DNA of 64,000 nt, from positions 43,061 through 107,060 of the forward strand of contig JBEKBH010000007.1 of the NCBI GenBank assembly GCA_050015495.1. Reading direction: 5' to 3'. The DNA is from Verrucomicrobiia bacterium. GTDB lineage: Bacteria; Verrucomicrobiota; Verrucomicrobiia; Palsa-1439. The notes beneath the pieces were generated by a model, which saw only the letters and a program-made list of their open reading frames with translations, made no database searches and had not been told where the DNA came from. This document shows positions 3,695-61,983 of the stretch, one piece after another; the first letter of the stretch is position 1, and every line of letters starts with the position of its first letter. Position numbers and translations under genes: made by a program.

Positions 3695-6148
3695 ATGGCT
3701 GTCAAAATTCATTTGGCGAAGAAGAAAATCTCGATGAGCGTCGGCGATCTCGTGGCCGAGCCGCTGGTCAGCGACGGACGCGTGGGCGGGCTGGGGATGT
3801 GGACACGCCTGGCGATGGGGCGCGAAGCGCATGTGACCCACCAGCGGACGCAAGCGGGGTTGCACGAAGGCTATGGGCGAGAGATCGCGGTGCGTTACCA
3901 GACGACGGTCGACGAATTCGAGGTGACGATCCAAGGGCGCATCGACGGCGTCTACATGCCGCTGAATGGTGGCCCGCATGTGATCGAGGAGATCAAATCG
4001 GTGGTCGTGCCGCCGCGTGTGTTTTCCGCCCTTGACGAGAACTCCTACCCGCACTACGCCGAGCAACTGCGGCTGTATTGCTTCTTCGTCGAGCAGGAAC
4101 AGAAGACCGCGTTGGGCAGGCTCGTGTTTGTCAATGTAGCGGATGGAACGACGAAGGAAATCGAGATTCGCGGGCCGTTTGGTGATTGCGAGCGGCTGAT
4201 CGCTGACCGTGTACGCGCGTTGATTCACCAGGCGCAGGAAGAACAACGTCGTCAAGAACATCGGCGCACCCAATCGACAGTCCTCCGGTTTCCCCACGAC
4301 CGCGTCCGACCCCATCAGGATGAAATGATGGCGGCAGTCGAGCACGCGTTGAAAGAAGGGCGGCACCTGCTCGTCTCGGCTCCCGCGGGAGTCGGCAAGA
4401 CGACGGCAGCGCTTTACCCCGTGGTGCAATACGCGCTGGCGCACGATAAACGGGTGTTCTTTGTCACCGCCAAGAATACCCAGCAACAGATCGTCCTGGA
4501 AACGCTCCGACGCATGGGCCTGCGCGAATCCACACATCCCAACGCGGTGTTCTTTCGCGCGCGCGAGAGCATGTGCATCAACGACGTGTACGCCTGCCGG
4601 GAAGAGTTTTGCCCGCACCTGCGCGATTTCCGCGCAAAACTCGAGATGACGCGGGTTGCGGACCGCTTGCTGGCCGAACGGCTGATCACCCCCGATGCGA
4701 TGATGGAGGCTGGACGAGGCACGAGCCTGTGTCCATTCGAGTTGGCGTTGGTCGAGGCCGAGTTAACCGACGTGATTGTCTGCGATTACAACTATGTGTT
4801 CGATCCGCAGGTGTATTTCCGCCGGTTTTTCCTTGAGGCCGACTACTCGAATGCGATTTTGGTCATCGACGAGGCGCACAACCTCGTCCAGCGCGCCATG
4901 GATTACTATTCGCCGAGCCTGTCGCGGCAGCACATCCGCGATTTGAGCGGTAACCTGCGTCACGTCGAGCCGTCGCTGGCGAAGGAACTGCGGAAATTCC
5001 TGGGAGAGATCGACGACTTCTTCCGCAGCCAGGTTCGCACCAAGGGCGACGAATACACCCAACTCGACGAGAGCGACGTGGGACAGGACAAGTACCTGGT
5101 ACCCTCGCCGCGAGAATTCTTCGAGGGCCTCAAGCCAGCCTTTAACAAGCTGACCGTCCGTTACCTGTTGGACAAGACGACGAGCGGACGGGCGATCCCG
5201 GATGATCCCGTCGACGAGTTTTTCTCGGCGTTCGGCCAGTTCTGCGTCGTGCTGGGGATGGAAGGCGACGAATTCTCGTACATGTACGACACGACAGGGG
5301 GCGAAGCCTTGAAAATCGTGTGCAAGGATCCGTCCCGGCAATTGGCGCATCGGCTGGAAGGGTTTCACAGCGTGATTGCCATGTCGGCGACGTTGGAACC
5401 GATGGCGTTTTACCGCCAGATGCTCGGGTTCGACACCGAGCGAACGGACCAAGCAACCTTCCCATCCCCCTTTCCCAAAGAGAATCGGCGCATTATCGTG
5501 GTCCCGACCGTTTCGACCACATTTCGCGTCCGCGCAGCCCACTACGGGAGGATCGCCAATATCATCGGGACAACTGCAGAAGCCCGGCTCGGCAACTACA
5601 TGGCGTTGTTCCCCAGCTACGATTTCTTGCGAGGAGTCGCCGGACAAATACCCGAAGGCCCTTGGGAGATTCTCGTCCAGGAACCCAAAATGACCGAGCA
5701 GCAGCGGCTGACGCTTCTCGATGCTCTCCAAGAGCCCCAGCCCCCGAAGCTCATCCTCGCTGTCCAAGGCGGCCTTTTTTCGGAGGGAGTGGACTATCCG
5801 GGCGAAACGCTTTCGGGGGTCATCATCATCAGTCCCGCCCTACCCCAAGTGAGTTTCGAGCGTGAACTCATGCGACAATTCTACGAAGAACATTATGGGA
5901 AGGGGTTCGAATTCGCCTACCTCTATCCCGGCATGAACCGGGTCATTCAGTCGGTTGGCCGGCTCATTCGGAGCGAATCGGATCGTGGTGTGGCAGTGCT
6001 TGTGTGCCAGAGATTTGCGCAAACGCAGTATTCAACGCTTTTCCCTCCGGATTGGTCTGAGAGTATGGCCAGCGGCCGGGCTGGGTACAATCTGGCCGAC
6101 GAATTGGCGGATTTCTGGGGTGGTAACCCCCAGAGGTCGGTGCGGTAA
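3695..6148 (+). CDS. DinG/XPD-family Fe-S helicase with N-terminal PD-(D/E)XK (Cas4/RecB-like) nuclease domain
   Basis: GRIDG..IEEIKS..Q..Y nuclease motifs; APAGVGKT, four Fe-S Cys, DEAHNL, SAT, SEGVD, QSVGRLIRS helicase motifs. Start ATG 3695 chosen because the longer ORF overlaps the divergent gene. Confidence 0.88.
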   Translation: MAVKIHLAKKKISMSVGDLVAEPLVSDGRVGGLGMWTRLAMGREAHVTHQRTQAGLHEGYGREIAVRYQTTVDEFEVTIQGRIDGVYMPLNGGPHVIEEIKSVVVPPRVFSALDENSYPHYAEQLRLYCFFVEQEQKTALGRLVFVNVADGTTKEIEIRGPFGDCERLIADRVRALIHQAQEEQRRQEHRRTQSTVLRFPHDRVRPHQDEMMAAVEHALKEGRHLLVSAPAGVGKTTAALYPVVQYALAHDKRVFFVTAKNTQQQIVLETLRRMGLRESTHPNAVFFRARESMCINDVYACREEFCPHLRDFRAKLEMTRVADRLLAERLITPDAMMEAGRGTSLCPFELALVEAELTDVIVCDYNYVFDPQVYFRRFFLEADYSNAILVIDEAHNLVQRAMDYYSPSLSRQHIRDLSGNLRHVEPSLAKELRKFLGEIDDFFRSQVRTKGDEYTQLDESDVGQDKYLVPSPREFFEGLKPAFNKLTVRYLLDKTTSGRAIPDDPVDEFFSAFGQFCVVLGMEGDEFSYMYDTTGGEALKIVCKDPSRQLAHRLEGFHSVIAMSATLEPMAFYRQMLGFDTERTDQATFPSPFPKENRRIIVVPTVSTTFRVRAAHYGRIANIIGTTAEARLGNYMALFPSYDFLRGVAGQIPEGPWEILVQEPKMTEQQRLTLLDALQEPQPPKLILAVQGGLFSEGVDYPGETLSGVIIISPALPQVSFERELMRQFYEEHYGKGFEFAYLYPGMNRVIQSVGRLIRSESDRGVAVLVCQRFAQTQYSTLFPPDWSESMASGRAGYNLADELADFWGGNPQRSVR

Positions 6149-15309: not shown

Positions 15310-15333
15310 GTGGGAGGGGCCTCAGCGCCCCGA
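15310..15333 (+). repeat. REP-like hairpin GTGGGAGGGGCCTCAGCGCCCCGA
   Basis: GTGG tag + GGGGC/GCCCC stem; inverted partner at 15857-15880. Confidence 0.85.
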
Positions 15334-15343
15334 TCTGTCTGTG

Positions 15344-15847
15344 TCAATCTCCCTCAAATTCCCATGGCCAAGGGCTCGACACCAGTGTTGGTTCCTGCAA
15401 GCTGCTAGCATCCCATTGCTCTGGCGTGCTTGCCAGCCCCTTTCTCACTGGATTCCATACAATGTAATCGCAAATGTAAGCAAACTGTTTTGTGGATCGG
15501 ATCCTTGTTTCGTAGTATCCATCTTGCCATCGGCACCCCGACGCGCGCAGTGCTCGCGCGGTTTTCGCGCCAACGAAACTCATAAAAGAGTGCATGAAGT
15601 CCGGCAACGTCCCCCCCTCCAAAAGGCCAATCAAACCATGCCAATGATCCGGCATCACGACAAAGGCACCTATCACGATCCGCCGTGTCCCGACGGCGTG
15701 ACGAAAAGCCGATGAGACCAACGCACGCAGTTCCACAGATAGCGCCGCCGTTCGCGGTTGGAGACATTTCGTAACAAAGAACGTATCTGGACGATCGGCG
15801 ACGCGATGCATCCGTAGGTTCTTTGAATGAGGTTCGCCTGCTTTCAC
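15344..15847 (-). mobile_element. REP-associated tyrosine transposase (RAYT, Y1 HUH family)
   Basis: FFVTKC, VVMPDHWHGLI (HUH), WQDGYYETRIR, YIVWNPVRKGL, W..SS; flanked by inverted REPs. GTG start at 15847 estimated. Confidence 0.9.
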
Positions 15848-15856
15848 GGCATACGC

Positions 15857-15880
15857 TCGGGGCACTAAGGCCCCTCCCAC
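15857..15880 (-). repeat. REP-like hairpin GTGGGAGGGGCCTTAGTGCCCCGA
   Basis: Reverse complement matches 15310-15333 at 22/24; begins 2 nt after the hpnO stop. Confidence 0.85.
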
Positions 15881-17989: not shown

Positions 17990-18109
17990 CGCGGCCAGTT
18001 TCGGCCGGTCGACGATCTGCACAGTCCTTCCCGTTTTCCCAGTAATCGGTTGTCGTTTCACCATCGGCCTGTTAGAAATCGGATCCGAACGCGCGCTGAG
18101 AGAACGATC

Positions 18110-19687
18110 ATGGCGAACCTTTTCCTCGGACTGGACTGCAGCACGCAGAGTCTGTCGGCGATGGTGATCGACCACGATGCCCGGCGGATCGTTTACCACC
18201 ACTCGCTCAACTTCGATCAGGCACTGCCGCATTATAGGACGCAGAACGGCGTATTGCGCAGCCAGGACCCGCTCGTCGCCCACAGCCCGCCGCTGATGTG
18301 GGTCGAAGCGCTCGACACGCTGTTGGCGCAAATGAAAATGGACGGCGTGCCGCTAGGCGAAGTCCTGGCCGTCAGCGGCAGCGGACAACAACACGGTTCC
18401 GTGTACCTCAACCGCCGCGCGCGGGGTGCGCTGGGGCGGCTCGACGCCACAACACCGCTCGTCAAAAATCTACACGGCGTGTTCTCGCGGGCCACATCCC
18501 CGATCTGGATGGATTCCTCGACCAGCGTCGAGTGCGCCGAGATTCGCGATGCTCTTGGCGGGGTCAAAGCCACGGCACAAGCGACCGGCTCGGACGCGTT
18601 CGAGCGGTTCACGGGGCCGCAAATCCGCAAATTCTACAAGACCGAGCCTGACGGTTACGCCCGGACTGCGACGATTGCGTTGGTGAGTTCGTTCCTCGCC
18701 TCGATTATCGCGGGCAAGGTCGCGCCGATCGATCCCGGTGACGGCGCGGGTATGAACCTCATGGACGTCCGCAAAAACGCGTGGCATCCGGGGGCGTTGA
18801 GAGCGACCGCGCCACAGTTGCGGAAGAAACTTCCATCGCTCGCCCGGTCGTCGAAAGTCATCGGCAACATCAGCCCGTATTTCGTGAAGAGATATGGTTT
18901 CGATGCGAAGGCCAAGGCGCTGGTCTGGTCCGGTGACAACCCGTGCAGCGTGATCGGGCTCGGCCTCATCAAGGAAGGCACCGTGGCCATCAGCCTCGGC
19001 ACGAGCGATACGCTGTTCGGTTATATGCGACGGTGCCGCGTGGATGACCGCGGCGAAGGGCACGTGTTCGGCGCGCCCACGGGGGATTACATGAGCCTCA
19101 TCTGTTTCAAGAACGGCTCGCTGGCCCGCGAACGCGTCCGCGACATGTACCGGCTGGATTGGGACGGTTTCAACCGGGCGCTCGACGCGACCCCGCCCGG
19201 CAACAGCGGCGCGGTCATGCTGCCGTGGTTCGAGGCGGAAATCGTCCCGCGCGTCAACCGTCCCGGCATCCATCGGTTCGACCTCGATCCGAACGACGCG
19301 GCGGCGAATTGCCGGGCCGTCGTCGAGGCGCAACTGATGTCAATGCGGCTCCACTCGCAATGGATGAAAGTCCGACCGAAACAGATTTGCGCGACCGGCG
19401 GCGCATCCACCAACCGCGCGATCCTGCAAATCATGGCGGATGTGTTCGACTGTCCCGTCGTCCGCATCGAGGTCGCCAAGAGCGCCGCCCTCGGCGCAGC
19501 GCTCCGCGCGGCTCACGGCTGGCTGGCGCATTCCGGGAGGAAACCGCGGTGGCAGGATGTCGTTGCCGGGTTCACCGATCCGCTTCCCGACAGCGAGGTT
19601 CGTCCCCGCGCGACATCGGCACGGGTGTACGGTCGATTGATGGAGAAGTACGCCACGCACGAGCGGGAGGCGATCCAGGAGGGGTGA
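18110..19687 (+). CDS. xylB: FGGY-family carbohydrate kinase, xylulokinase-like
   Basis: LGLDCSTQS, SGSGQQHGSVY, ERFTGPQIRK, SGDNP, SLGTSDT, TGGAS. Confidence 0.85.
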   Translation: MANLFLGLDCSTQSLSAMVIDHDARRIVYHHSLNFDQALPHYRTQNGVLRSQDPLVAHSPPLMWVEALDTLLAQMKMDGVPLGEVLAVSGSGQQHGSVYLNRRARGALGRLDATTPLVKNLHGVFSRATSPIWMDSSTSVECAEIRDALGGVKATAQATGSDAFERFTGPQIRKFYKTEPDGYARTATIALVSSFLASIIAGKVAPIDPGDGAGMNLMDVRKNAWHPGALRATAPQLRKKLPSLARSSKVIGNISPYFVKRYGFDAKAKALVWSGDNPCSVIGLGLIKEGTVAISLGTSDTLFGYMRRCRVDDRGEGHVFGAPTGDYMSLICFKNGSLARERVRDMYRLDWDGFNRALDATPPGNSGAVMLPWFEAEIVPRVNRPGIHRFDLDPNDAAANCRAVVEAQLMSMRLHSQWMKVRPKQICATGGASTNRAILQIMADVFDCPVVRIEVAKSAALGAALRAAHGWLAHSGRKPRWQDVVAGFTDPLPDSEVRPRATSARVYGRLMEKYATHEREAIQEG

Positions 19688-19697
19688 GGCCGTTCAC

Positions 19698-19733
19698 CAC
19701 GAAGTACACGAAGCAGACACGAAGGGCACGAAG
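19698..19733 (+). repeat. Four CACGAAG units at 9-11 nt period
   Basis: Read directly; two related units occur on the minus strand at about 31581-31597. Confidence 0.85.
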
Positions 19734-19754
19734 ACGGCGAGGCCGGGGCGCTGA

Positions 19755-19782
19755 CCCGGCCTTCGCTGAAGCTACGGCGGGC
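19755..19782 (+). repeat. REP-like imperfect palindrome CCCGGCCTTCGCTGAAGCTACGGCGGGC
   Basis: Hairpin-forming intergenic motif; single copy in this window. Confidence 0.5.
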
Positions 19783-19827
19783 GATGAAGCGAGGGGGAAG
19801 AGTGAGGAGGTGGCAGGATGTCCGGAG

Positions 19828-19927
19828 GATCGCTGATACCTAGTAGTACTAGGCATCGGGCTGACGCACGATACATTGCACTGCAATGTATCGCGGGGGG
19901 GGGCGGGCAAAGCACGAGCGCGGGAGA
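19828..19927 (+). repeat. Dispersed element X, copy 1 (core palindrome CGATACATTGCA-C-TGCAATGTATCG at 19869-19893)
   Basis: Aligns by eye at roughly 80% with the reverse complement of 33776-33883. Confidence 0.88.
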
Positions 19928-20048
19928 TCATCGGCAAAGAACCGGGTGACCAATCGCAATTATAGAAGTGTGGGAGGCAGTGGGCTTATTGAGGTCTCAT
20001 CATTCACCCTGACATGCTGCAAGCGCCGCCTGAACCGTAGCCTCTCGG

Positions 20049-20354
20049 TCACTTCGGCTCGGCACGCTGCTTCCAGTAATCCGGGCGTCTCTTAGCATGG
20101 GCAATGGCTGCGATCCAAATCGCGTTGGGCCGTTGCATATAGAAGATCGAATACGGGAAGCGTTCCACCAGATACTTTCGAAATCGCGGGTCAACATGCG
20201 ATGGCCATGCTTGCGGGCTTTGTTGAATCTTCCGGAATGCCTGCTCGACACTGGCGAGGAAGTCCAATCCCAAGCCTGACACTTTGGATTCGTAGTAAGC
20301 GATCGCGCCATCCAATTCGGCTTTCGCCAACGGATGGACGAGGAGGGGTTTCAC
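20049..20354 (-). CDS. RelE/ParE-family type II toxin
   Basis: VHPLAKAELDGAIAYYE..GLGLDF..RKYLVERFPYSIFY..IAAIAHAKRRPDYW; GTG start overlaps the antitoxin stop. Confidence 0.9.
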   Translation of the reverse strand: MKPLLVHPLAKAELDGAIAYYESKVSGLGLDFLASVEQAFRKIQQSPQAWPSHVDPRFRKYLVERFPYSIFYMQRPNAIWIAAIAHAKRRPDYWKQRAEPK

Positions 20355-20581
20355 GAGTATTTGGCGCGCATTTCCCGCAGGAGTTTTTCCGCCGGCTCGC
20401 CGGTGACACGACCGCTTTGAATCTCTTCGGCCCGCCGCTTCAACTCCTCGTCCCACGCCGCGGCAACGCCCTGTTCTTCGTCGCCATCCAGCGATTCGAT
20501 GAGGAACCGAACCAGCTCCGCGCGGTCGTCGGGCGTGAGGCCCGCCAACTCCGATTTCATGCGCTCCGCTTTCGCCGTCAT
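20351..20581 (-). CDS. Addiction-module antitoxin (putative, TIGR02574-like)
   Basis: LTPDDRAELVRFLIESLD..AAWDEELKRRAEEIQSG; translationally coupled to the toxin. Confidence 0.88.
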   Translation of the reverse strand: MTAKAERMKSELAGLTPDDRAELVRFLIESLDGDEEQGVAAAWDEELKRRAEEIQSGRVTGEPAEKLLREMRAKYS

Positions 20582-20814
20582 GCCAGTAGTTTGCTCCGTT
20601 CCCCGGCTTCCGTCAACTGTGCACTGTGGTTCTTCCATGCGGTCACGTGAAGACGGATACCTTCGGTCGATTGCTGTGCGGGGTCGGGAGATTGCCGCAA
20701 AGGAACGGAGCGGCGTTTGCGACCGGGGCAAGACGTGGCCGCGTCTCGCGGACTCGGCTCCGTCGGACTCGGCTCACGCACAACCAGGCTTGCCCGTCGA
20801 ATGGGGGGTGCACT

Positions 20815-20900
20815 TTTTTTGATCTGTCATCGGAATTTTATGGACAAGTGATATACGGTAGCGTATAGTCGGGGCGTTTTGGGTTGTTTGACATAGGGGG
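20815..20900 (+). promoter_or_regulatory. Dispersed element Y, copy 1, with sigma70-like promoter TGGACA(20841)-N17-TATAGT(20864)
   Basis: About 85% identical by eye to the reverse complement of 31611-31695; hexamers and 17-nt spacing are conserved. Confidence 0.82.
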
Positions 20901-20937
20901 GGAATGCAGGAAACGACGGGCGGTGAGGCCGGGGACG

Positions 20938-20962
20938 CGGCTCGCCGGGAGGCTCGCCCTCC
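20938..20962 (+). repeat. REP-like CGGCTCGCCGGGAGGCTCGCCCTCC
   Basis: Identical 25-mer on the minus strand at 31351-31375; GGGAGG/CCTCCC stem. Confidence 0.88.
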
Positions 20963-20984
20963 CAAATGCAGCGGGGCGGCCGGT

Positions 20985-21009
20985 CCGCGTTTATGAAACG
21001 CGGCTACAA
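20985..21009 (-). repeat. GTAG-type REP hairpin TTGTAGCCGCGTTTCATAAACGCGG
   Basis: TGTAGC tag + 8-bp stem/3-nt loop; related copies at 31320 and 31555. Confidence 0.8.
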
Positions 21010-21056
21010 ATGGCGACCTCGAGGAAACAGGGTTGCGCAAAAAGGGGGAAATTGCG

Positions 21057-21155
21057 AAACGAACCCACCGATATCGGATCGAAACTACGTGTGGATGTGA
21101 TTGTGGGAGAGGTTGTTGGAAAAACACGGGTCGCGTTTTTTCGGTGGGTTCGTTT
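21057..21155. repeat. Perfect 15-bp inverted repeat AAACGAACCCACCGA / TCGGTGGGTTCGTTT around a 69-nt spacer
   Basis: Arms at 21057-21071 and 21141-21155. Confidence 0.85.
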
Positions 21156-21260
21156 GGGTTCGGTCGGCTGGTTGCCGAGGCGTTTCGGTGTGCCGGCGAT
21201 GGTTTATCACGTCATTTCTGGCGCGTTCCGGCACCGCGTCGGGCAACCGGGGGAGGCTGA

Positions 21261-22070
21261 CTAGATCGTTTGGGCGAGGAATCCGCCGTCGACGCAGATG
21301 TCCGCGCCCGTCACAAAGCTGCTGGCCTTCGCGCTGGCGAGGAACACGACCGCGCCGATCAATTCCTCGCTGTTGCCGAGTCGTCCCATCGGCGTGTGGT
21401 CGAGGATCAACCGGGCACGCGGCGTCGGCGAGCCGTCCTTGTTGAACAGGAGCGCGCGATTCTGGTCGGCGGGGAAGAATCCCGGGGTGATCGAGTTCAC
21501 GCGGACGCCGTTCCTGGCCCATTCGTGCGCGAGAAACCGCGTGAGGTTCAGCGCGGCTGCTTTCGCCGCCGAGTACGCGACCACGCGCGACAGCGGCAGG
21601 TGTCCCGAGACGCTGGCGATGTTGATGATCGATCCGCGGCCGCGTTTCGCCATCGCCGATCCGAATTCCTGGCAGGGCAGGAGTACGCCGCCGACAAGGT
21701 TGAGGTCGAACACCGCGGCCCAATTGGCGTGGGGAATGTCCTCGAACTTCAAATCGGGTGTGACGGTCGCTTTCGGGTCGTTTCCGCCGGCGGCATTCAC
21801 CAGGATCGTCGGGCACCCGAGTGAGTTGGCAATATGCTCGTGGGCAGCGCGGAGACCGTCGCGTTTCATCGCGTCGGTCGCGAAGAATCGCGCTGTTCCG
21901 CCCGATTTTTTGATGGCACGGACGCGAGCTTCCCCGCGTTCGGGATTGCGGCCAACCACGGCCACCGCAGCGCCGGCGGCGGCCAATCCTTCCGCCATGG
22001 CTCCGCCGAGCGCGCCCGTCCCTCCGATCACCACGGCGACTTCGCCGGTCAGGTCAAACAAATTTGTCAT
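21261..22070 (-). CDS. SDR-family oxidoreductase (sugar/sugar-acid dehydrogenase, UxuB/Gno-like)
   Basis: GGTGALG, NAAGG, YSAAKAA, VRVNSITPGFF. Confidence 0.88.
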   Translation of the reverse strand: MTNLFDLTGEVAVVIGGTGALGGAMAEGLAAAGAAVAVVGRNPERGEARVRAIKKSGGTARFFATDAMKRDGLRAAHEHIANSLGCPTILVNAAGGNDPKATVTPDLKFEDIPHANWAAVFDLNLVGGVLLPCQEFGSAMAKRGRGSIINIASVSGHLPLSRVVAYSAAKAAALNLTRFLAHEWARNGVRVNSITPGFFPADQNRALLFNKDGSPTPRARLILDHTPMGRLGNSEELIGAVVFLASAKASSFVTGADICVDGGFLAQTI

Positions 22071-22176
22071 GGCATCATTCTCGTTTCACGATCAAGCGGC
22101 ACTCGTCCACGCAACGCCCGCGCGGCACAAATTGTCTTCTTGCCTCGCGCCCGGCGAGTCCGTAAGGTTTCGCCCG

Positions 22177-27047: not shown

Positions 27048-27944
27048 GTGGAGCAACTGATCGATGCTTTTCTCGATCATCTGACCGTCGAGCGCGGACT
27101 CGCGTCCAACACGCGCGCCGCCTATCGCGCTGATCTTGCCCAGTTTGCCGATTTCCTCCATCGCCGCGGCGTCGAACATCTGAACGACGCCCAGCGCCAA
27201 CTCATCACGGAGTATTTGCTGCACCGGCGCAAAGGCGGCCTGAGCCCACGGAGTCTTTCCCGCCACCTCGCCGCGATCCGCACGTTTTGCCGGTTCCTTT
27301 CCCGCGAAAAGCTTCTCGTTGCCGATCCCACACAGACGATCAATTCGCCCAAGCTGTGGCGCACCCTTCCCCACTCGCTCGATTACGAAGAGGTCGGGCG
27401 GCTGCTGGCCGCGCCCGACACGCGCACCAAGCTCGGTGTGCGCGACAAGGCGATGCTGGAATTCATGTACGCCACGGGATTGCGCGTCAGCGAAGTTACC
27501 CACATCAAGCTCAGCGACATCAATTTCGAGGCCGGCTTCCTGCGTTCGCTTGGCAAAGGCAGCAAGGAACGCATCGTCCCCATCGGGAAACAAGCCATTG
27601 ACTGGACGCAGCGTTATCTCCACGAAGCGCGCGGATCGTTTGCCGGGGCCGACAGTATCGGCGAAGTGTTTCTCTCGACTCGCGGCCGGCCGCTCAGCCG
27701 AAAAACCATCTGGGTGCTCATCAAAAAATATGCGCGCCGGGCCGGCATCTCGAAAAACATCACGCCGCACACGTTGCGGCATAGCTTTGCCACCCACCTC
27801 CTCGACAACGGCGGCGACCTGCGCGTCATCCAAGAAATGCTCGGCCACGCCGACATCTCGACCACGCAAATCTACACGCACGTCGACCAGCAGCGCCTGA
27901 AAGAGACACACTACCGTTTCCATCCCCGTTCGGGGCGACGGTAA
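27048..27944 (+). CDS. xerD: Site-specific tyrosine recombinase XerD
   Basis: AAGGAGG RBS; YATGLRVSE, GKGSKERIVP, PHTLRHSFATHLL, MLGHADISTTQIYTHV. Confidence 0.93.
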   Translation: MEQLIDAFLDHLTVERGLASNTRAAYRADLAQFADFLHRRGVEHLNDAQRQLITEYLLHRRKGGLSPRSLSRHLAAIRTFCRFLSREKLLVADPTQTINSPKLWRTLPHSLDYEEVGRLLAAPDTRTKLGVRDKAMLEFMYATGLRVSEVTHIKLSDINFEAGFLRSLGKGSKERIVPIGKQAIDWTQRYLHEARGSFAGADSIGEVFLSTRGRPLSRKTIWVLIKKYARRAGISKNITPHTLRHSFATHLLDNGGDLRVIQEMLGHADISTTQIYTHVDQQRLKETHYRFHPRSGRR

Positions 27945-31554: not shown

Positions 31555-31580
31555 TTGTAGCCACGGCACTGCGTGCCGTG
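31555..31580 (+). repeat. GTAG-type REP hairpin TTGTAGCCACGGCACTGCGTGCCGTG
   Basis: Same tag and stem/loop geometry, different stem sequence. Confidence 0.75.
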
Positions 31581-31610
31581 CTTCGTGCCCTTCGTGGTTC
31601 AATCCCCTTC

Positions 31611-32253: not shown

Positions 32254-33759
32254 ATGGAATCCCAAACCAAGGCACGAAGTTTTACGTCGGAACTTTTCCG
32301 CTTCCGTCGACAGTGGATTGTGGGTGCGGGTGTAACCACAGTGAACCCAGCATGGCAGAGCCTGGATCTGTCGAGCGGACACACGTTAACTTACCATCCA
32401 GACGTGAGGATCTCTGCCCGTCGGGAGGGCAACAGGCAAATTGTGGTCCTGGGCGTTGCGACACACACGGCAGCAAGTCAAACACCACCTTTGTCAGTCA
32501 TTGACAAACTGGACCGCGAGTCGATTGTTCGGTGGCTTCTTCGCTTGGCCGGTCGGTATGTCGTACTTTTCTCGGAAGGTGAGAATCTGTATCTTTACAC
32601 GGACCCGGCAGGGATGATGGGGATTTTTCATACGTGCGCCAAAGCGGCCTCTACCCCAAGTCTCCTCCTTCGAGGAGAGGATCAAGAGATTGCCGATACT
32701 GGCATCCGCCGGGAACTTGAAGAAAACTTCTTTCCTGGGACGATGTGCGCGCATAGCGGCGTGGACGCTCTGATGGCCAACCACGAACTCCACCTGAATA
32801 GTGGCGTTACGCGGCGCTTTTGGTCACCGTCCCCCGGCCCGAGAGGCGACAAACCACCGATTGACGAAATGTGCGACTTACTACAGCGAATCGTAGATGG
32901 ATTTCGCTCATCGGGTCAATTGTTGGTCTCTTTGAGTGGTGGAAGAGATAGTCGTGTCATCTTGGCGGCAGTACGAGCGTTCGCTGCCGAGGTGCGATTC
33001 TTCACGATTCAGAAGCCTCATTCCAACAACAGGGATGCAAGATACAGCAGACAACTTGCTGTCACCTTCCAATTGAACCACGAGGTCCTACGGTCACTGT
33101 CGCCGCCCCAATGGGTAACATCAGCTTATGACGAGATCGGAAGCGGAATGCTACGCGCCCGGTCGCGCCCCGAGCTTGATGGGCTTCGGAAAATCAACAC
33201 CTCAGGTTGTGTTCATGTCGGGGGAGTCGGTGGCGAAGTGCTCAGGGCCCACCTATGGCCATCCCAACGACCCAAAAGAGCGGACACCATGAAGCTGACC
33301 CGCCAAGCGTTTTCCTGCGCGCCACCTTCTGTCCTCGATGCGGTCGGCCAATGGCGGAGAAGCCTGCCCCTCGACACGTCGCCTCCCACGGTGTTTGACT
33401 TATTCGAATTCGAACAGCGGAGCGGTCGCTCCGCCGGGATTGTTGAGGCGTGCTCGAGCCTCTTCCACGAAACCGCACCGCCCTTCAATAGCCGCGAACT
33501 CTTCGAGTTGATACAGTGCGTCCCATTGGAAATGAGATATGCGGGCAAGTTGAATGCCGCCCTCATCCGAACCATGTGGCCACAGCTATTGGAGGTGCCC
33601 CTTACCCAACGCGGGAGGCCCTGGTGGAAATCGTTGCCAAAGCCGGTGAAGGCTGCCGTGAAGAGATTACGCTGGTTCTCTGTTCGAAGTCGTCCATCAG
33701 GCTCCCCGTTCATTCATTATCGCAACGAACGACGTATTGCGTCCGGGGTCAGACACTGA
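32254..33759 (+). CDS. Asparagine-synthase-related (PP-loop) protein, orphan cargo gene
   Basis: SLSGGRDSRVIL PP-loop, GGVGGEVLR, PPFNSRELFE; N-terminal GATase-like remnant without an N-terminal Cys; appears lower in GC than its flanks. Confidence 0.72.
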   Translation: MESQTKARSFTSELFRFRRQWIVGAGVTTVNPAWQSLDLSSGHTLTYHPDVRISARREGNRQIVVLGVATHTAASQTPPLSVIDKLDRESIVRWLLRLAGRYVVLFSEGENLYLYTDPAGMMGIFHTCAKAASTPSLLLRGEDQEIADTGIRRELEENFFPGTMCAHSGVDALMANHELHLNSGVTRRFWSPSPGPRGDKPPIDEMCDLLQRIVDGFRSSGQLLVSLSGGRDSRVILAAVRAFAAEVRFFTIQKPHSNNRDARYSRQLAVTFQLNHEVLRSLSPPQWVTSAYDEIGSGMLRARSRPELDGLRKINTSGCVHVGGVGGEVLRAHLWPSQRPKRADTMKLTRQAFSCAPPSVLDAVGQWRRSLPLDTSPPTVFDLFEFEQRSGRSAGIVEACSSLFHETAPPFNSRELFELIQCVPLEMRYAGKLNAALIRTMWPQLLEVPLTQRGRPWWKSLPKPVKAAVKRLRWFSVRSRPSGSPFIHYRNERRIASGVRH

Positions 33760-33775
33760 CTCTTGGCATTATTTC

Positions 33776-33883
33776 CCCGCGCTCGCGCTTTGCCTACACT
33801 CCCCACGCGATACATTGTAGTACAATGTATTGTGCGTCAGCCCAACGCCTCCTACTACCAGATATTCAGATATTAGCGATTCC
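33776..33883 (-). repeat. Dispersed element X, copy 2 (core palindrome CGATACATTGTA-G-TACAATGTATTG at 33808-33832)
   Basis: Inverted homologue of 19828-19927 with a compensatory change in the palindrome. Confidence 0.88.
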
Positions 33884-61806: not shown

Positions 61807-61983
61807 GATGGCGCGCTACGCTTGATTTGATGGCGAATTACCGGTCAGCATGAAGAACCCTCACCCTGACCCTCTCCCTTACACAACAAGGGAGAGGGAA
61901 GTTTCCTCTCCCCTTCGGGGGAGAGGATTAAGGTGAGGGGGCAGTCGTTAAATCAGTCGTGTCGCAACACTAGGATGGCGCGC
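61803..61983 (+). repeat. 14-bp direct repeat CTAGGATGGCGCGC (61803-61816, 61970-61983) bracketing a double-hairpin REP-like element (61858-61941)
   Basis: Outer CCCTCACC/GGTGAGGG; inner stems CCCTCTCCCTT/AAGGGAGAGGG and CCTCTCCCC-TTCG-GGGGAGAGG. Confidence 0.88.

Follow-up and report, generated by a model that had tools for sequence, protein, structure and literature searches.

The window analysed here (64,000 nt, part of a 128-kb contig of the peat metagenome assembly ERZ27249977) contains two inverted copies of a short intergenic element, designated X, each of which includes a palindrome. The question raised by this locus is what the palindrome represents. A sequence-only reading of the window had proposed either an operator for a dimeric protein or a hairpin formed by single-stranded DNA (ssDNA) or RNA, and had interpreted a paired difference between the copies, C-G in one and T-A in the other, as a compensatory change that keeps the symmetry. 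The results presented below favour the former possibility: with a probability that we estimate at roughly 0.6, element X is a dispersed repeat carrying putative operators of two paralogous PadR repressors.

Structure of element X and its setting in the window

The two copies of X, each of approximately 90-100 nt, are separated by 13.9 kb (Table 1) and share 83% identity over 90 nt (19836-19924 versus 33865-33776, E = 3e-20). Common to both is a 23-bp palindrome, HP1 (GATACATTG-N5-CAATGTATY), contained in the sequence ...CGCGATACATTGCAGTGCAATGTATCGTGCGTCAGCCC... on the minus strand of copy 1 and ...CGCGATACATTGTAGTACAATGTATTGTGCGTCAGCCC... on the plus strand of copy 2. The pattern ATACATTGNANTNCAATGTAT has two matches in the window, compared with 0.00 expected (100 shuffles). 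In copy 1 HP1 forms a perfect 11+3+11 palindrome (19869-19893). Inspection of both copies bore out several features of the sequence-only reading, namely (i) the inverted orientation and the symmetric C-G to T-A difference, (ii) the G.T mismatch of copy 2, the single one in its arms, which is located at the outer pair (GATAC...GTATT), and (iii) the conserved flanks around the palindrome. That reading had overlooked approximately 60 nt of further similarity on the cargo side, as well as a second palindrome, HP2, placed within the very interval that it described.

Table 1. Positions of element X, its parts and the adjacent cargo genes in the window
Feature	Position	Strand	Description
X copy 1	19822-19921	-	nhmmer profile built from layout-type-A copies, 85.8 bits, E = 1e-24
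HP2 of copy 1	19835-19857		GATACCTAGTAGTACTAGGCATC (GATGCCTAGTACTACTAGGTATC on the minus strand); matches the HP2 pattern exactly; candidate operator for a PadR repressor of type B
HP2-HP1 spacer of copy 1	19858-19869		12 nt, GGGCTGACGCAC
HP1 of copy 1	19870-19892		GATACATTGCACTGCAATGTATC; putative operator of a type-A PadR repressor
TA cargo of copy 1	20049-20731	-	neighbouring context, outside X
501-aa cargo gene of copy 2	32254-33759	+	weak asparagine-synthase-type domain (PF00733, E = 1.2e-6); outside X
X copy 2	33778-33880	+	nhmmer, 69.7 bits; inverted relative to copy 1
HP1 of copy 2	33809-33831		GATACATTGTAGTACAATGTATT; inner pair T-A, outer pair G.T
Decayed HP2 of copy 2	33844-33866	+	AACGCCTCCTACTACCAGATATT; more than 3 mismatches to the HP2 pattern

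Copy 1 consists of a TTGCCCGC-type left arm, HP1, the spacer, HP2 and the motif AGCGAT, and its weak likeness to other copies continues to about position 19965. The centres of HP1 and HP2 are 35 bp apart. The two palindromes have a common frame (GAT, 5 nt, GYASTRC, 5 nt, ATC) and different arms, i.e. ACATT/AATGT in HP1 and GCCTR/YAGGT in HP2. The left arm of copy 2 extends from about 33742, across the stop codon of the gene upstream. The decay of its HP2 suggests that copy 2 has ceased to be maintained, and an 8-bp sequence (CAGATATT) is duplicated in tandem there, at 33859-33866 and 33867-33874.

At each copy the neighbouring genes converge, and X follows the 3' end of an accessory gene that has the same orientation. 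Copy 1 is placed between the 3' end of a xylulokinase-type FGGY gene (18050-19687, plus strand) and that of a toxin-antitoxin (TA) pair encoded on the minus strand. The antitoxin ORF (20351-20731) belongs to Unstab_antitox (Pfam PF09720, E = 1.4e-14), and the toxin ORF (20049-20456, whose start is likely to be later) is termed RelE/ParE-like on the appearance of its sequence only, since Pfam gave no match. The toxin stop codon is about 125 nt from copy 1, with X on the 3' side. Copy 2 starts at the stop codon of the 501-aa gene and faces the 3' end of a gene of the glyoxalase family.

Scans of both window copies detected no promoter and no intrinsic terminator, i.e. no GC-rich stem with a T/U tract behind it, which agrees with the earlier remark that the stem has no U-tract. 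A promoter inside X, suggested by TACAAT/TGCAAT in HP1 on both strands, was rejected, as in layout-type-A copies the DNA at the place of the -35 box is C-rich, unlike that of PadR loci. In Rfam no family reached the gathering score for X, the one match being a partial one to MH_s15 (17 bits). Metatranscriptome contigs, available from one sparse dataset, were found within the 501-aa cargo gene and none of them spans X.

Several other features of the window were noted. A XerC/D-like gene (27048-27944) is situated between the inverted copies. A gene for a RAYT-type Y1 transposase with visible HxH and Y motifs (15344-15811, minus strand) is flanked by 24-nt inverted GTGG-type REPs (15310-15880) that are unrelated to X. 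Runs of short CTTCGTG-type repeats (cttcgtgcccttcgtg...) occur at 19690-19760 and 31575-31600, and also downstream of HP1 in locus L010; in these genomes such runs are intergenic and accompany GTAG-type REP hairpins. A 58-nt repeat of the window (20717-20774) is also present in loci L055 (1930-1987) and L161, and a 39-nt repeat (61902-61940) occurs twice in locus L173.

Element X is a dispersed repeat of peat-bog Verrucomicrobiia

A scan of one genome per species with the pattern GATACATTG-N5-CAATGTATNG identified 48 loci. Of these HP1 matches, 28 are found in six metagenome-assembled genomes (MAGs) of peat-bog Verrucomicrobiia (SPRUCE 370, SPRUCE 575, MFD01223.bin.2.30, MFD00082.bin.2.52, CRr3G3H3I bin_98 and bog_1451), the four best represented of which have 4-7 matches each. 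Many more HP1 matches were obtained in a metagenome scan, and the scan of viral contigs gave 0. In the literature, sequence words of the element matched only eukaryotic entries and primers.

Using a profile of the whole unit, we detected full-length copies (>65 bits) in at least 12 unrelated intergenic gene contexts in MAGs and metagenomes of peat Verrucomicrobiia. The genes neighbouring X include those for a Gfo/Idh/MocA oxidoreductase, pirin, a CDGSH protein and cytosine deaminase. The majority of the MAG loci have layout type A, comprised of the TTGCCCGC motif, HP1, 12 nt, HP2 and AGCGAT; in an alignment of 20 copies of this type, the spacer measures 12 nt in 15. In layout type B, HP2 is placed ahead of HP1 and the unit follows a gene for an Mrr-like nuclease. 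Further layouts contain HP1 singly or in tandem.

Element X is thus a dispersed intergenic repeat of about 100-150 bp, present in a clade of peat-bog Verrucomicrobiia, which has conserved flanks at non-homologous loci and whose presence varies between relatives. Since both the flanks and the spacer are kept at non-homologous sites, the copies arose by duplication of a unit of at least 100 nt, and not as binding sites that evolved independently of one another. Alignments of the flanks revealed neither terminal inverted repeats nor target-site duplications, and likewise yielded no clean pair of empty and filled sites.

Two additional observations concern the surroundings of X. The gene that regularly precedes layout type B (HP2, about 20 nt, HP1) encodes an Mrr-type endonuclease domain with a topoisomerase-type zinc ribbon (L051:1281-2243, with relatives in L078, L099 and L139). 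A third type of palindrome, TTATGGAT-N6-ATCCATAA, which may be the operator of yet another regulator, occurs near X in L107 (1910-1935), L015 (2745-2772) and L075 (about 2000-2030).

The paired positions of the palindromes do not covary

The proposal of a compensatory change was examined with 20 non-redundant layout-type-A copies, which were aligned and in which the pairs of both hairpins were counted. The eight arm positions of HP1 had been set by the search pattern, so their invariance among the collected copies follows from the way in which these were found, and the informative pairs are the inner and outer pairs and those of HP2. The mean covariation score of the shuffles was 0.117, whereas the alignment itself scored 0.106; of the 500 shuffles, 455 equalled or exceeded that value. 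Similarly, the proportion of paired cells (88.4%) did not exceed the shuffle mean (88.6%).

The pair singled out in the sequence-only reading is T-A (U-A) in 10 of the 20 copies, C-G in three and unpaired in seven; all seven unpaired copies read C/A on the cargo-sense strand, and none reads U.G. No significant association was found between the two positions of this pair (Fisher two-sided about 0.21). The most variable pair of HP2 is unpaired in 9/20 copies. The G.T pairs, which favour the cargo-sense strand, are offset by the C/A states, which favour the other strand. Given this balance and the absence of covariation, selection for a hairpin is not supported, and the compensatory interpretation of the C-G to T-A difference did not hold. 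Within the family the inner edge of the half-sites varies freely; the difference is therefore best read as a pair of ordinary transitions, each half-site changing from TTGC to TTGT. When two copies of a palindrome differ by a symmetric double change, this should be regarded with caution, as it constitutes weak evidence for a hairpin.

Palindromes of the X type are associated with genes of PadR repressors

PadR proteins are winged-helix homodimeric repressors which bind inverted repeats in their own promoters (PMC4534193, PMC3506622, PMC5728393); a promoter may contain one or several such sites (PMC4534193). Palindromes of the HP1 type were found 0-25 nt ahead of, or overlapping, the starts of PadR (PF03551) genes in at least seven lineages belonging to several phyla. 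Outside Verrucomicrobia, the assignment of the encoded proteins to PF03551 has E values of 1e-20 to 1e-25. Loci of this kind are present in (i) Acidobacteriaceae (L023) and the similar metagenome contigs L147 and L109, (ii) Planctomycetota (L026 and L034), (iii) Salinibacterium (L035), (iv) an organism with a G+C content of 35% (L132) and (v) peat contigs that resemble the window in composition (L055, L052 and L118; tetranucleotide r 0.97-0.98). In L055, HP1 ends 4 nt before the GTG start codon of the PadR gene. The orthologous locus L073 contains a second PadR paralogue, whose ATG lies 2 nt past the end of a palindrome of the HP2 type.

The correspondence between paralogue and palindrome was analysed in nine genes, eight of which had been fetched by protein similarity and one (L055) by its palindrome. 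It is complete (9/9): the genes of PadR-A are accompanied by HP1-type sites (4/4) and those of PadR-B by HP2-type sites (5/5). PadR-A (..NWQDGTIYPVLRHLE..; recognition region ..GIRKRIFEQSKGTLNWQDGTIYPVLRHLE..) is encoded in L173, L180, L182 and L055, and the sites at its genes have the form GATACAT[T/G/A]G-N5-C[A/C/G]ATGTATC. PadR-B (..RWH[Q/E]GT[L/V]YPVLH[R/H]LE..) is encoded in L169, L176, L179, L181 and L073, with sites of the form GAT[A/G]CCTAG-N5-CTAGG[C/T]ATC. In all nine genes a site is located 0-5 nt from the start codon, and another is often found past the stop codon. L173 originates from the same assembly as the window (ERZ27249977), has a tetranucleotide r of 0.958 with the window and shares the 39-nt repeat mentioned above, and L169 is on the MAG contig that also carries the X copies L005 and L029. 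The PadR-A gene of L173 occupies 4001-4360 and the PadR-B gene of L169 occupies 4001-4333. Among solved structures, PadR-A is most closely related to single-domain proteins of the LmrR type (3f8b and 8qdf, E about 1e-15).

The PadR genes were also seen to be bracketed by their own palindromes, at the start codon and shortly past the stop codon, with more copies nearby (L173:2693, 3974 and 4366; L181:674, 1086, 1315 and 1576; L176:3977 and 4457). L073 and L055 contain tandem, partly degenerate copies of PadR genes, with palindromes at each of them.

On the basis of this position and of the co-variation of paralogue and site, HP1 and HP2 may be considered the cognate operators of PadR-A and PadR-B, respectively, both of which would be single-domain LmrR-like repressors. 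At its own gene each repressor would act at a palindrome that abuts or overlaps the start codon, a homodimer being expected to occupy the palindrome with one winged helix per half-site; the symmetry of the palindrome would then be due to the binding of a homodimer. We infer that the same proteins bind X. Of the two possibilities raised in the sequence-only reading, the operator is favoured by the link between palindromes and PadR genes, and the ssDNA/RNA hairpin is disfavoured by the lack of covariation.

Some properties of X differ from those expected of a PadR operator. The canonical PadR motif, ATGT-N8-10-ACAT (PMC3506622), is absent: HP1 contains the same tetramers in reversed order (ACAT-N11-ATGT) and HP2 contains neither. 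The central 5 bp of HP1 are more palindromic in Verrucomicrobia (YASTR) than in the PadR operators of other phyla, and this extra central symmetry is not explained by an operator alone. None of the X copies examined adjoins a PadR gene and no PadR remnant was found in the window; the idea that X is the leftover of a deleted PadR gene was abandoned, as there is no coding trace. A human-gut locus with HP1 arms, recurrent in the metagenome scan, does not adjoin a PadR start and was taken as unrelated.

Located between convergent genes, the window copies would, as classical operators, have no gene to repress. Their local effect could be that of a protein roadblock, the titration of repressor, or nothing. 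If PadR-A and PadR-B do bind X, dozens of double operators are scattered genome-wide in these uncultured peat bacteria, often beside recently acquired genes, and a regulon, or a network of repressor sinks and roadblocks, would have been built by a repeat and not by point mutation. The difference between HP1 and HP2 also offers a testable operator code for two paralogues of the PadR family, in which the specificity for DNA has been little mapped. Phenolics and other toxic compounds, the typical signals sensed by PadR proteins, abound in peat.

Variable segments adjoining X and alternative explanations

The DNA segments next to X vary between related loci. In L185, which has orthologous flanks on both sides and a xylulokinase with 84% identity, X and the TA pair are absent from the gap between the xylulokinase and LutA genes: the window contains in this gap (19678-22128) X, the TA pair, element Y, REPs and an SDR gene, and L185 (6569-7471) a single alpha/beta-hydrolase gene. 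The gap appears as a hotspot of replacement. Locus L018 is syntenic with the window between 25.9 and 31.3 kb (about 94% protein identity) and has X where copy 2 stands (similarity over 33742-33862), with other DNA in place of the 501-aa gene. The segments adjoining X also differ between L014 and L015, L020 and L030, and L025 and L029. In the peat contig Ga0326728_10007421 (L107:560-2460), three copies of X alternate with a gene for a PEP-CTERM-like protein of 194 aa and one for a lipoprotein of 62 aa, and the array is followed by a 450-aa gene on the opposite strand and pirin. The end of each small gene directly adjoins the left arm of the X that follows it, so that the array resembles an integron, although it has no integrase.

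A gene for a Ser/Thr protein kinase (PF00069) and a 152-aa gene whose family is unassigned are found in L029 (4816-6299) between X and the next conserved block, and are missing at the matching place in L025; they may represent a defence-type pair. The interpretation of L025, L029 and L019 as attL, attB and attR was dropped, as the shared flanks are partly the repeat itself and the difference consists of the 2.4-kb kinase segment.

Because X is often placed 3' of co-oriented accessory genes, adjoins variable segments and forms the array of L107, we keep a cassette-like role in consideration. According to this proposal, which seems to us unlikely, X would serve as the 3' part of gene cassettes that move without an integrase in peat Verrucomicrobiia. 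The accessory genes, i.e. those for TA pairs, kinases and small secreted proteins, would travel with a unit of approximately 150-190 nt that carries one operator for each PadR paralogue, and arrays (gene-X-gene-X-X, as in L107) would arise by recombination at X. The PadR pair would then silence or insulate new genes, constituting a dedicated xenogeneic-silencing circuit wired by a mobile double operator.

It is also improbable that X is a REP/REPIN-like or IS200/IS605-type element, in which HP1 and HP2 would act as ssDNA hairpins, the substrates of a HUH (Y1) transposase such as RAYT. X is indeed dispersed, intergenic, capable of forming hairpins and often located at the 3' ends of genes, its different stems share a frame and a loop, GTAG-type REPs abound in the genomes concerned, and a RAYT gene is present in the window. 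However, the stems do not covary and their variable positions are unpaired in about 35-50% of the copies; the GTAG/GGAG tag is absent 5' of HP1 and HP2, GTAG being present only in the loop and on one strand. The REPs that flank the RAYT gene of the window are of another type, and tblastn with this RAYT found no relative in the approximately 165 loci holding HP1. Moreover, the same palindromes are placed on the start codons of PadR genes in phyla that lack the repeat.

A role of X as a recombination site of gene cassettes (attC or Xer pdif-like), at whose palindromes a tyrosine recombinase would swap cassettes, is quite unlikely. Such a role would be consistent with the repeated arrangement of an accessory gene followed by a co-oriented X (the TA pair and the 501-aa gene of the window, the kinase pair of L029 and the array of L107), with the differing segments in L014/L015, L020/L030, L025/L029, window/L018 and window/L185, and with the XerC/D-like gene between the window copies. 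That gene, however, is syntenic in L018 only and absent from all other X loci, and the breakpoints of the replacement between L014 and L015 fall at no fixed point in X. X folds into two separate short hairpins instead of one long attC-like hairpin, and has no conserved R''/R' (RYYYAAC/GTTRRRY) pair, GCCCAAC being found in copy 2 only. It is also present in divergent promoter regions without cargo. The specific identities that we considered were rejected on similar grounds: an integron attC for want of a long hairpin and conserved core sites, and a dif/pdif site on account of the single-base symmetry centre, the differing arms of HP1 and HP2 and the absence of a linked recombinase.

We regard as very unlikely the view that X acts in the 3' UTR as an RNA stem-loop which stabilises, processes or terminates the upstream cargo transcript. 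In its favour, a co-oriented gene directly precedes each window copy, folding predicts the HP1 hairpin in both (z = -4.1 for the region of copy 1), and the G.U pairs at the base of the stem suit the cargo-sense strand; but the C/A state of the inner pair, present in 7/20 copies, favours the other strand, copy 2 folds no better than shuffled sequences (z = -0.45), and a T-tract or terminator pattern, an Rfam match at the gathering score and covariation are all absent.

That X is the operator of the neighbouring TA pair, or the leftover of a TA promoter, can practically be dismissed. TA antitoxins do bind palindromes and copy 1 lies beside a TA pair, but X is 3' of the toxin gene and away from the TA promoter, no TA genes surround copy 2 or about 20 further copies, and the HP1-like site upstream of a MazE-like gene in L031, an unrelated acidobacterium, is at chance level. 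The antitoxin suggested in the sequence-only reading as a binder of the palindrome is disfavoured for the same reasons. The outcome by which that reading would have been refuted, a standard TA promoter remnant, was not borne out either: most other copies are without nearby TA genes.

Comparison of element X with known systems

Integron cassettes with their attC sites (e.g. the VCRs of Vibrio) resemble X in that a palindromic element of 100-150 nt stands behind each of the small accessory genes, TA pairs among them; the likeness extends to direct arrays, as seen in L107. In contrast to integrons, X has no attC architecture, integron integrase, attI or fixed crossover point. Single copies and both orientations are also found, and the only recombinase gene linked to X is the syntenic XerC/D-like one.

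REP/BIME and REPIN elements, which are associated with RAYT, are, like X, short palindromic intergenic units that form mosaics and are often found at the 3' ends of genes, and true GTAG-type REPs coexist with X in these genomes. Unlike them, X is AT-rich in its arms and lacks a GTAG tag, a linked Y1 transposase and covariation of its stems, and its palindromes coincide with putative operators of a regulator.

Binding sites of IHF occur in the BIME/RIP elements of Escherichia coli and in the Correia elements of Neisseria. These elements, like X, are mobile or duplicated non-coding units that spread a binding site for a host protein. Terminal inverted repeats or target duplications were not identified in X. 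The sites in BIME/RIP and Correia elements are those of one general nucleoid protein, whereas X contains two putative sites for two specific, paralogous repressors of the ligand type.

A parallel in terms of the proposed protein-DNA interaction is provided by the autoregulatory operators of PadR proteins (LmrR, PadR of Bacillus subtilis, bcPadR1/2), in which a small winged-helix homodimer binds an inverted repeat overlapping its own promoter. In comparison with these, the tetramers of HP1 are set within a longer palindrome of 23-27 bp and the arms of HP2 are different. The sites of X are, in addition, found away from PadR genes, where they are paired on a dispersed repeat.
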